From NCBI GenBank assembly GCA_013239625.1, contig MU053588.1, positions 1,079,988-1,143,987 on the forward strand: a stretch of DNA of 64,000 bases, given 5' to 3'. The stretch comes from Lama guanicoe. Taxonomy: Eukaryota. Shown piece by piece: positions 4,105-61,950 of the stretch; within the stretch, counting starts at the first letter, position 1, and every line of letters begins with the position of its first letter. The notes beneath the pieces are model-generated. The model was not told the DNA's origin. It searched no databases and saw only the letters and a program-made list of their open reading frames with translations. Both the position numbers and the translations under genes were made by a program.

Positions 4105-4712
4105 TACTGTTTCTTATAAGAAGTCAGCTGATAATCTTACTGAAATTTTCTTATATGTGATGAGTCATTTTTCTCTGGCTGGCTTTCAAAATTCCCCTTT
4201 GCCTTTATATGGTTTAAGTATGATGTATCTAGGTGGGGTGCTCTTTGTATCCTGCTTGAGTTTGTTGAGTTTCTTTGGTGTATAGATTAATATTTTCATC
4301 AAATTTGGGATTTGGGGCCATTATTTTTCTGCCCCTTTCTCATTTTGCCTTCTAGGACTCCCATTATGCATATGTTGATATGCTGGATGGTGTCCCACGG
4401 GTCTTTGAGGTTCTGTTAGCTTTTTTTCATTCTTTTATTTTTCTCTTCTTCAGACTGGATAATCTCTATTGTCCTACCTTCAAATTCATTGATTCTTTCT
4501 CCTTCCAGCTCAGATATGTTGTTGTGCCCCTCTAGTGGTTTTCAAAAAAAATTCACTTATTGTACTTTTCAACTCCAGTTTCTATATGGTTATTTTTTTT
4601 AATATCATCTACCTCTTTATTAATATTCTCTAGTTGATGAGCCATTGTCATCATCCTTTAATACTTTAGACACAGTTTTCTATAGTTCTTTGAAGATACT
4701 TGCAATAGTTGA
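4105..4712 (-). mobile_element. Old L1 fragment (antisense)
   Basis: T-rich sequence with typical antisense L1 phrases (ttcatcaaatttggga, tcagactggataatctctattg); boundaries approximate. Confidence 0.6.
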
Positions 4713-58235: not shown

Positions 58236-60469
58236 TGAGCGCTGCTGTGTCCTTGCACATCCCCGGTTCTCCCACGTCCACCTCTTACAGACTCGGCGCA
58301 CACGTGGACATATACCCTTATACATGCAGCAGCATCCTTGTGCCCTCAGGGTGGCCGCCCCCACACCGTGCCTGCCACTTGCACACTCACACTGGGAGCT
58401 CTTATATTCCTGATGCAGCCACATCCACATGCTCAGGTACTTGAACCCACGTGGTTATGCACACCTGGCTCACCTTCCCAGTCCCTGGTGTGCCATCTCT
58501 TGGCGCTGGCCTGCCCACACCCACTCTTTTGTAATCTTACTTTGAGGTGCCCTGTATGCTGGCCCACCCCTTACCAATCACCACATGTGCCCCCAAATGC
58601 CCTCTGAGTTCCTAGCACACAGTGCCCATTCCACTGATTCTGGGTGCACACGTGGGTGCACATCTCCTGTACTCACTCTGAGGATGCCAGTGTGTCTTCC
58701 TGCAGCCCTGGCACAGCATATGGTTGTCCACCCCTCACTCATTCACCTGCATGTGCCTTCCTATAGCCCTGGCACCCTCATGCTCACCCCTGCACACTGG
58801 AACCACCCTCTCAAACTCACCTACAAGAGCCCCTGCATGTCCTTGGTGGCCAAATCTACTCCTTGTCCTGATATGCCCCTAATATGCCCAGTCCACAAGT
58901 GTTTGAATGCCCCTTATGTACTCACTTGCTCCCGGAGTACAGTCATGTGGCCCTGGCACACCCCAGCCCACCTCATACACTTAGCATGTATGTAGTTCCC
59001 ACATTCTCTTGCACTCCCATGAGCTCCACCTGCACACTCGGCCCCCAGCCCTGCCCCTGTGGTCCCAGTGGTCCTCCAGCTCACACTCACAATGCACTTC
59101 CCTACCCTGGGCACTCACAATTCCTCTTTGTTCCTCACATGCACCAAGCACCTGCCTGCTCCTCCCACCTGCTCTTGCACCCCCTTCCCCACTTACACTC
59201 GAAGTCCATGCGGCTTGCACCCCCATCATCTCCTCAACACCTGGGCCCCTCGCATTTCCTCAGTGCCACCTGGCTCATGCACACCTGGGCTTGTGCCCCA
59301 CCCTAAGCCCCACCCTCATGTTCCAAGCCCTCTTATGCTGACTCCCAAGTCCCCCTGCACGTTTATCCCGCTGCACATGCACTGACGTATGAATTAGAGA
59401 CCCTTCCCACACTCACACCCCTCCGCCCTCGGTTTTGCCCAGGCCCTTGCATGCCTGCCCTATGTGCCCATTGTCTGCCGTGCACACTGCACCCTGCATG
59501 GTTGCATTCTTCCCACATCCTCCCATGCCTCCACACAGTCCTTGACCACTATCCCTCCCTTAATCCCTGGTGCCCTCTCACAAGACTCTTGCACATCAGC
59601 TTTTTCACATATTCCACTGGAACCCCAAGGTTTTGCACACTCACCTGTGTCCCTTGGGGCACCACTGCATACTCACCCTCCTCTCCGATCTGGCTTACAA
59701 GTCATTGCACCATCCTTGCATCTGCTGGAAGCCCTGGTTCCCTACTGGCCGTGCACACCCTTGTACCTGTGATGCGGTGGGAGCTCTGTCCCCCCCAACC
59801 CCTTACGTGCACCCTATGTGTGCACTCTTTCTCATAGCATTCTTCCTCTCTAAACATTTCCTCCTGTTCATGACTCACATTCCCACTCTCTCCTGATGCT
59901 CCAGAGTCCACATCTGCCTGCATGGCCCCCAGCGCTCATGCAGCAATACAATAGCAAACACTATACAGCATCTGGTAGGGGCCAGGCACTGTGCATCTAT
60001 CAATTCACTTAATCCTCACACTAACCCTATTACCCATAGGCCCTACTATTATTCTCCGATTTACAGAAGGGGAAATAGGCCTAGAGAGTTATGTGTAACT
60101 CAGTGGTAGAATCAGGATGAGAACCCAGGCAGTCTGGTTGCAGAACAGTTGCCAAAAACCACTGTGCTCCGTCTTTCAAAGAAGCCAAAAGCATAGATTC
60201 TGGAACCACCTTGTTGGTAATTTGAATCGTACACCTACCACCTCTCAGGTGCGTCACCCTGGGCACATGGCTTTCTAGGCCTCCATTTACTCATCTGTAA
60301 AATGGGGATAATAGCCTCGACCTCTAGGATGGCTTGTGAGGATTAAATGAGATACCATATGGAAAATGCCTGATACAGGGCCCGGCCTCATCGAAGTTCT
60401 TACCAGTGCACCTACAGCGAGCGCTGTATAGGTTTGCTATTGATAATAAAAACAATGACAATGCTTAGA

Positions 60470-61320
60470 ACAGAGGCTGCAGCGGCGAACGCTTGCAGCT
60501 GCCAAGGCTGTTGTCCCAAGTCCCTGCGGATGACGCCCCCATCACGTCCCCTCTGTCCCGCGTTGCAGGTGAAGGAGTCGAAGCGTCAGTTCATCTTCGA
60601 CGTGGTGAACGAGGGCGGCGAATCGGAGAAGATGGAGCTCTTCGTGAGCTTCTGCGAGGACACCATCTTCGAGATGCAGATCGCCGCGCAGATCTCGGAG
60701 ACCGAGGGCGAGCCGGAGGAGAACGATGACGAGGGCGCGGTCGTCGGCGCGGCGGAGCTGGGCGCCGAGGGCGCGGAGGAGGGCGCGGCAAGGCCCGAGG
60801 GCGCGGCGGCCACGGCGGCGGCGGCCTTGACCGCGCAGCTGACGGCGGCGGCCGGCCGGGCCCTGCGCGGAGCGGTGCTGGCGCGCGCGGGGGCGGCGGG
60901 CGCGGGGGCGGCGACGGGCGCGCTGCGCCTGCTCTGGGGCTCGCTCTTCGGCGGCGGCCTGGTGGAGGGCGCCAAGAAGGTGACGGTGACGGAGCTGCTG
61001 GCGGGCATGCCCGACCCCACGGGAGACGAGGTGCACGGCGAGCAGCCGACCGGGCCCGGTGGCGACGCGGACGGCGAAGATGCGGCCGAGGGCGCGGGCG
61101 ATGCTGCGGAGGGCGTGGGCGACGAGGAGGCGGCGGCGGAGGAGGCCGGCCCTGGAGGCGCCGACCGGGCGGTGGCCGTGGCCGAGGGGGGCCCCTTCCG
61201 GCCCGAAGGGGCGGGCGGCCTCGGGGACATGGGTGATACGACGCCGGTGGAGCCGCCCACTCCCGAGGGCTCCCCCATCATCAAGAGGAAGCTGGGGGTG
61301 AGAGGGAAGGCGGGGGCTTC
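60470..61320. promoter_or_regulatory. Intragenic CpG island over exon 91
   Basis: Very high GC with dense CpG (ggcgcggcggcc, gcgcgcgcgg) over more than 800 bp, in contrast with CpG-depleted introns. Confidence 0.8.
60569..61297 (+). CDS. RYR1: RYR1 exon 91 (divergent region 1; shortened in frame)
   Basis: tgcag|...|gtgaga, 729 nt; [17 protein letters not shown]...SPIIKRKLG; recalled human exon is 813 nt. Confidence 0.95.
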
Positions 61321-61950
61321 AGGGTTTTGGAGAGATTGTGGGTTGGAGGGAGGAAGAGAGGGGGAAGAGAGACTCTAATAGACCGAGGTGGGGTAGAGGA
61401 GTCGGCGCACGAGAGCCTGAGAGACACGCAGAGATGGAGACCTGGAGGAAGGCTCGAGGTGAAAAGATAGTGTTTCTGGGAGAGGCAGAGAAAAAGATCA
61501 TCTGGCGCCAGATAGAGCAGGAGATCCAGAGACCAAATTAGAGGGAAAGCGGGACCAAGAACTAGGAAGACCCAAGAGAGGGTCGGGGACACTGGGGAAG
61601 ACCTTCAGAGATTGACCCTTGTGGTAAATTAATGAGCCCACGTTACAAAAGCCCCTAGCATCCTCAGGCCCTCAGTGCAATGAGTGCCAGGTGGGTGTGG
61701 TTGTCAAGGTAATGGGAAGCCCTGGGGGGAGAAGAGCTCCGCTTGGAGTCAGCCTGATTCTGCACTGTGCTTTGGCCGAGGCACTCCACCTCTCTGAGCC
61801 GCAGTTTCCCCTCTGTAAAATGAGAATCATAATGCCGCTTCTAGTGGGGGAGAAAGTAAAACTTAGAAAGGGACACAGAGATGAATAGGCAGGGCAGCAC
61901 TGAGAAGCACTTGGGGTATAACTCGGCCGTGATGCTTGCCCTGCCCCCAG

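Follow-up and report, generated by a model that had tools for sequence, protein, structure and literature searches.

Two elements described in RyR1 lie in the part of the protein considered here. The third calmodulin-binding domain, CaMBD3, has been placed at human residues 4295-4325, and the peptide used to study it, of 24 residues (4303-4326), binds S100A1 tightly and calmodulin as well (PMC6087734). In rabbit RyR1, residues 4318-4344 have been modelled, with 4323-4340 forming the transmembrane helix S0, earlier called TMx. This helix adjoins S1, and nearby R4321 contacts E4908 of the neighbouring S6; the authors of the cryo-EM work argue that S0 favours activation and propose that it is needed for it (PMC11850639). 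The human exon that encodes this region, exon 91, is also known to vary in length without loss of frame. In-frame duplications at residues 4279-4290 have been described, namely p.T4288_A4290dup and p.G4279_T4284insAAGLEG, one exon 91 duplication having an allele frequency of 0.022 in people of African ancestry, and nearby in-frame duplications have been linked to malignant hyperthermia or rhabdomyolysis (PMC12652105, PMC13711367). A RyR1 engineered to lack residues 4274-4535 is reported to be functional, its evoked Ca2+ transients being larger (Du et al. 2004, cited in PMC13711367). In camels, a 2026 population paper reports a sweep at RYR1 with three missense variants in other parts of this gene; in the part of that paper available to us, the exon treated below is not mentioned.

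The window, by which we mean the whole 64-kb stretch of DNA that was analysed, carries this exon on its plus strand. Reading and translating the sequence gives a stop-free exon of 243 codons (729 nt) with the following limits.

60569-61297, plus strand: RYR1 exon, equivalent to human exon 91, phase 0 at both ends, encoding part of divergent region 1
60567-60568, plus strand: splice acceptor AG, read directly
61298-61299, plus strand: splice donor GT, read directly

When the exon product was searched with phmmer against PDB chains, the best match was pig RyR1 (E = 4.8e-110), with rabbit RyR1 at about 1e-101. RyR1 chains fell between 1e-95 and 5e-110 versus about 1e-29 for RyR2 and RyR3, so the exon is closer to RyR1. 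The Pfam family RR_TM4-6 starts at exon residue 147. Along the plus strand of the window, 46 tblastn segments of the pig RyR1 model P0232 occur in order, most of them 90-100% identical, and those of lower identity are the segments that bridge short introns. A first interpretation of this DNA, made without database searches and referred to here as the sequence-only reading, had held that the rest of the gene is conserved, and these ordered segments bear it out. The neighbouring exons are present and conserved; the gene is intact and this is no pseudogene copy. In the whole assembly the exon occurs as a single full copy, and two paralogues match its first 132 nt only. These paralogous exons, from RYR2 or RYR3 of the same genome, lie at C9565:1524301-1524861 (minus strand) and C6187:687602-688405 (plus strand), with loci L002, L003, L005, L006 and L011; the one on C9565 keeps a counterpart, at 40% identity, of the 30-residue segment discussed below. 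The Thr in the motif SETEG is common to the exon and to cetacean sequences in the alignment. Three stop-free frames of 228-262 aa run antisense to the exon on the minus strand (60542-61374); they bear no sign of a gene and are a by-product expected at a GC content of 0.8-0.9.

On every full RyR1 chain in the PDB, the phmmer match of the exon splits into two stretches. In the case of the pig chain 9pwo_A, query residues 1-102 align with 4205-4304 and query residues 86-243 align with 4318-4475. Once the overlap is resolved, query residue 101 corresponds to pig 4303 and query residue 102 to pig 4334. On either side the two proteins stay collinear (query 1-101 against pig 4205-4303, query 102-243 against pig 4334-4475), and the 30 residues from pig 4304 to 4333 are without counterpart. 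By equivalent numbering the absent residues are 4304-4333 in pig, 4307-4336 in rabbit and 4308-4337 in human, and the human numbering agrees with that of the CaMBD3 peptide (PMC6087734). The equivalent pig exon encodes 271 residues in 813 nt, so that the window exon, with 30 residues fewer and two more, is 84 nt shorter. The sequence-only reading had called a loss of 30 codons, a junction at 60871/60872 and an exon difference of 84 nt made up by two extra codons; the codon reading places the junction exactly there, and the alignment to pig RyR1 reproduces the rest to the nucleotide. The features concerned are these.

60869-60874, plus strand: junction codons Gly101 GGA (60869-60871) and Ala102 GCG (60872-60874), between which orthologues have 30 codons
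60740-60745, plus strand: two extra codons relative to pig, Val58 and Val59, present in none of the compared sequences
60872-60973, plus strand: residues 102-135, the tail AVLA of helix S0 and an Ala/Gly-rich hydrophobic stretch running to LVEGA, from the alignment, with the limits of S0 as in PMC11850639

Val58 and Val59 constitute a private in-frame length change of their own, in the acidic, Ala-rich part of the same exon.

The absent residues coincide with both of the elements described above. By the limits given in PMC6087734, the window exon lacks 19 of the 24 CaMBD3 peptide residues and only RALRG is left. Likewise, 14 of the 18 residues of S0 (rabbit 4323-4340, following PMC11850639) have no counterpart, and R4321 is absent too. 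The overlap with a third calmodulin-binding site and with an auxiliary membrane helix, put forward in the sequence-only reading, thus agrees with the published limits of each. The hydropathy profile changes to match: the best 18-residue Kyte-Doolittle mean, 1.66 in the mammalian sequence P0124, is at most 1.19 near the window junction, and the strongly basic trough of P0124 (-1.63) is gone. Because of this fall from 1.66 to at most 1.19, the membrane helix would probably be lost from a protein translated as the exon reads.

Outside the window the segment is kept almost without exception. The mammalian alignment held 15 other sequences, from primate, rodent and cetacean sources and including ten contig-derived proteins; of these, 14 cover the site (P0132 does not), and all 14 have the 30 residues nearly unchanged. 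A smaller mammalian alignment shows the segment in each of its three intact sequences, all of which are also among the 14. The ten contig-derived proteins (P0122-P0131), which come from short-read contigs, have it intact, as do dolphin (P0136) and sperm whale (P0133), and it is present in the pig and rabbit PDB chains. The vertebrate alignment comprised 13 others (two mammals, three turtles, an alligator, a gecko, a frog, two catfishes, a sturgeon, an icefish and a char), and a homologous stretch, first basic and then hydrophobic, occurs in all 13, including the 11 non-mammals. The sequence-only reading had allowed that the segment might be commonly absent from orthologues; on the contrary, it is present in every intact orthologue examined. 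A search among proteins of near length found none more than 91% identical to the exon product. The other protein searches took proteins of fewer than 2000 and fewer than 5000 residues, a range outside which full-length mammalian RyR1 (about 5035 residues) falls. A scan of metagenomes returned two distant loci, at 40% and 60% identity, which were of no use for comparison.

The piece that is absent has the length of one period of a weak internal repeat. From one TAR motif to the next, intact mammalian sequences count exactly 30 residues, as exemplified by dolphin P0136, and the window retains the first copy of the repeat.

60824-60871, plus strand: retained first copy of the quasi-repeat, residues 86-101, which phmmer also aligns one period on, with pig 4318-4333 (7 of 16 identical)

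The loss in the window equals one 30-residue period of this quasi-repeat and therefore falls in frame without help from selection. The narwhal RefSeq model of RyR1, P0138 (4535 aa), also lacks residues in frame at this place, 31 of them, with AAAG joined to TAREAAT; this gap reflects either another, independent loss or another fault of assembly or annotation at the same spot. The sequence-only reading had taken the clean frame as support for a real deletion. The frame is indeed clean, but it is weaker evidence for selection than was assumed, because the loss is one quasi-repeat period and because the narwhal loss, in another register, is in frame as well. Other RyR1 models are damaged at the same site: gibbon P0139 has a large gap, the alternative pig model P0232 is garbled there, and the models of squirrel P0011 and pangolin P0075 are cut. 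These damaged models were drawn from the searches of proteins below 5000 residues, which enriches for broken models. In a sturgeon protein labelled UNVERIFIED_CONTAM (P0009), 61 residues of the hydrophobic hairpin region are duplicated in tandem, right after the position of the window junction, which is another length anomaly of the region in a draft-genome model. Within the window, there is a 32-nt direct repeat with 90-nt spacing and 78% identity; it is probably due to chance in G+C-only sequence and is not relied on.

In terms of the DNA, the GC content of the exon peaks at the junction, with 0.89 in the 100 nt of 60800-60899, and the junction lies inside a tandem tract delimited by TRF.

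60853-60922, no strand assigned: G+C-only, low-complexity tandem tract with periods of 6, 12, 15 and 18, containing the junction

On both sides, over about 500 nt at 0.72-0.89 GC, the frame is open and the encoded protein is conserved. No N occurs within the 64-kb window. The record is a 4.17-Mb scaffold in an assembly of 2.05 Gb and 55,231 records. The 199,987 bases of flanking sequence (up to 100 kb on either side) contain sized N gaps of 46, 266 and 33 nt (L018:111-156, L021:5868-6133 and L026:588-620), which mark the record as a scaffold built from shorter contigs; gaps and records in this pattern are those of short reads assembled with gap closure. A search of the whole assembly for another stretch encoding the missing 30 residues, able to detect the paralogue version at 40% identity, found none. 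With respect to reads, 14 DNA runs under five organism labels contain 0.83-0.93 of the sampled words of 60300-61500, these being shares of the whole stretch, which by themselves speak neither for nor against the junction as assembled. On the same whole-stretch measure another organism reaches 0.46-0.52, and RNA runs reach 0.08-0.39. Runs with the same organism label and study differ (0.93 versus 0.86, as whole-stretch shares). It is our guess that the 13-17% of words that are missing could be the GC-rich core. The RNA runs labelled 'reproductive system metagenome' contain 0.30-0.39 of the words, which suggests that those libraries hold RYR1 transcripts of the same or a very close species.

We lean, by a little, towards the view that the animal has the 30 codons and that the assembly lacks them. 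The exon would then be an ordinary RYR1 exon, encoding the CaMBD3 polybasic stretch and S0/TMx, and the 90-nt piece would have dropped out during closure of a short-read scaffold over the most GC-rich, low-complexity core; we infer that the losing step was assembly or gap closure, and with one quasi-repeat period gone the frame would stay open. Direct observation covers the absence, its location at the GC peak, the assembly type and the fact that other sequences conserve the segment. An assembly error is favoured somewhat because the segment is structured, functionally implicated and kept almost universally, which, taken together with its place at the weakest point of the assembly, outweighs the clean sequence. 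That the segment carries the modelled S0 helix and CaMBD3 counts for such an error, as do the placement of the junction at the GC maximum inside a G+C-only tandem tract and the damage that other RyR1 models (narwhal, gibbon, the pig alternative, squirrel and pangolin) show at the same exon. The flanks point the same way, being conserved without relaxation: residues 102-135 differ from P0124 at one of 34 positions (Thr115, Ala in P0124). Several observations count against an error, namely that the window has no N and its very GC-rich flanks are free of frame errors, and that the assembly holds no orphan copy of the missing piece. In graph-based assemblers, a join of this sort needs reads that span the junction or an exact repeat. 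Orthologous proteins show a weak repeat only, and the intact P0122-P0131 indicate that short reads can cross the segment; both count against an error as well.

A real deletion, fixed or private, is given rather less than an even chance overall. Its fixed form, in which this species, and with it perhaps related ones, would have a RyR1 without the greater part of CaMBD3 and without 14 of the 18 S0 residues, appears unlikely, though by no means negligible. It would explain a clean in-frame sequence with no N and with conserved flanks intact, as well as the failure to find the segment as an orphan copy elsewhere, and it has company in the second private in-frame change (the two added codons) in the same exon, in the human exon 91 duplications, including the one at 0.022 in people of African ancestry, and in the reported function of the 4274-4535 deletion (Du et al. 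2004, via PMC13711367); in people and in an engineered channel, then, the region tolerates in-frame change. The recovery of 0.83-0.93 of the words of the 1.2-kb stretch by 14 DNA runs would also be compatible with it, as far as shares of the whole stretch can be; nevertheless, no run exceeds 0.93 of the sampled words. A fixed deletion must further contend with the retention of the segment in every other intact vertebrate RyR1 examined, with a junction placed where assembly is hardest, with the tight conservation of the retained half of the hydrophobic region and with the drop in hydropathy that would probably cost the membrane helix. That the deletion is real but belongs to a private or polymorphic allele, possibly heterozygous, of which the shorter and less GC-rich form was sequenced preferentially, seems to us improbable. 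The tract is prone to slippage, human in-frame polymorphism occurs nearby, the flanks are not relaxed, as for a young event, and the runs of one label and study differ in the share of words of the whole stretch that they contain, all of which would suit such an allele; a dominant effect on an essential channel might nonetheless be harmful, the nearby human duplications having been linked to malignant hyperthermia or rhabdomyolysis. An error and a real deletion alike need a rare event, at a spot that is prone to both.

Should the deletion be real, S0 would be replaced by a far less hydrophobic stretch, of 14 residues plus AVLA, with two Arg and two Gly. From what has been published on the region, the channel would probably work, but its gating or regulation would be altered. 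Which way the change would go is uncertain because S0 has been proposed to favour activation (PMC11850639), whereas the 4274-4535 deletion gives larger Ca2+ transients (PMC13711367). The RyR1 of a large mammal would then naturally do without most of three elements retained in other RyR1 from fish to man: S0/TMx, the polybasic stretch beside it and CaMBD3, the site for calmodulin and S100A1. Such an animal would serve as a natural experiment in which these elements are either dispensable or re-tuned, with a possible tie to muscle Ca2+ handling or heat production in the lineage, and it would bear on the role of S0/TMx and of the third calmodulin/S100A1 site. A healthy species without the segment would also limit both the claim that S0 is needed for activation (PMC11850639) and the claims of a disease link made in PMC12652105 and PMC13711367. 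If, instead, the absence is an artefact of the assembly, draft genomes could not be relied on at this exon, and the in-frame disappearance of one quasi-repeat period could not be taken as evidence of selection.

Compared with the RyR1 of rabbit, pig and human, the window has the same gene, collinear flanks and ordinary splice sites in the region of exon 91; unlike them, it is without most of CaMBD3 and S0 and has two extra codons upstream. The human exon 91 duplications resemble it in being in-frame length changes of the same GC-rich exon, with slippage as the probable origin, but they add 3 and 6 residues, lie upstream of the polybasic stretch and entail no loss of CaMBD3 or S0. The sequence-only reading had pointed to small in-frame variants here in patients; such variants do occur in human exon 91, but those reported in the accessible parts of PMC12652105 and PMC13711367 are duplications at 4279-4290, just upstream, with none inside the absent piece. 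The engineered deletion of 4274-4535 (Du et al. 2004, via PMC13711367) takes away the same segment as the window, although it is a laboratory construct that removes 262 residues and the window exon is without only 30. The narwhal model P0138, like the window, has an in-frame loss at the same quasi-repeat in a draft assembly; its register is different, however, the polybasic stretch being lost there and the S0 residues kept.
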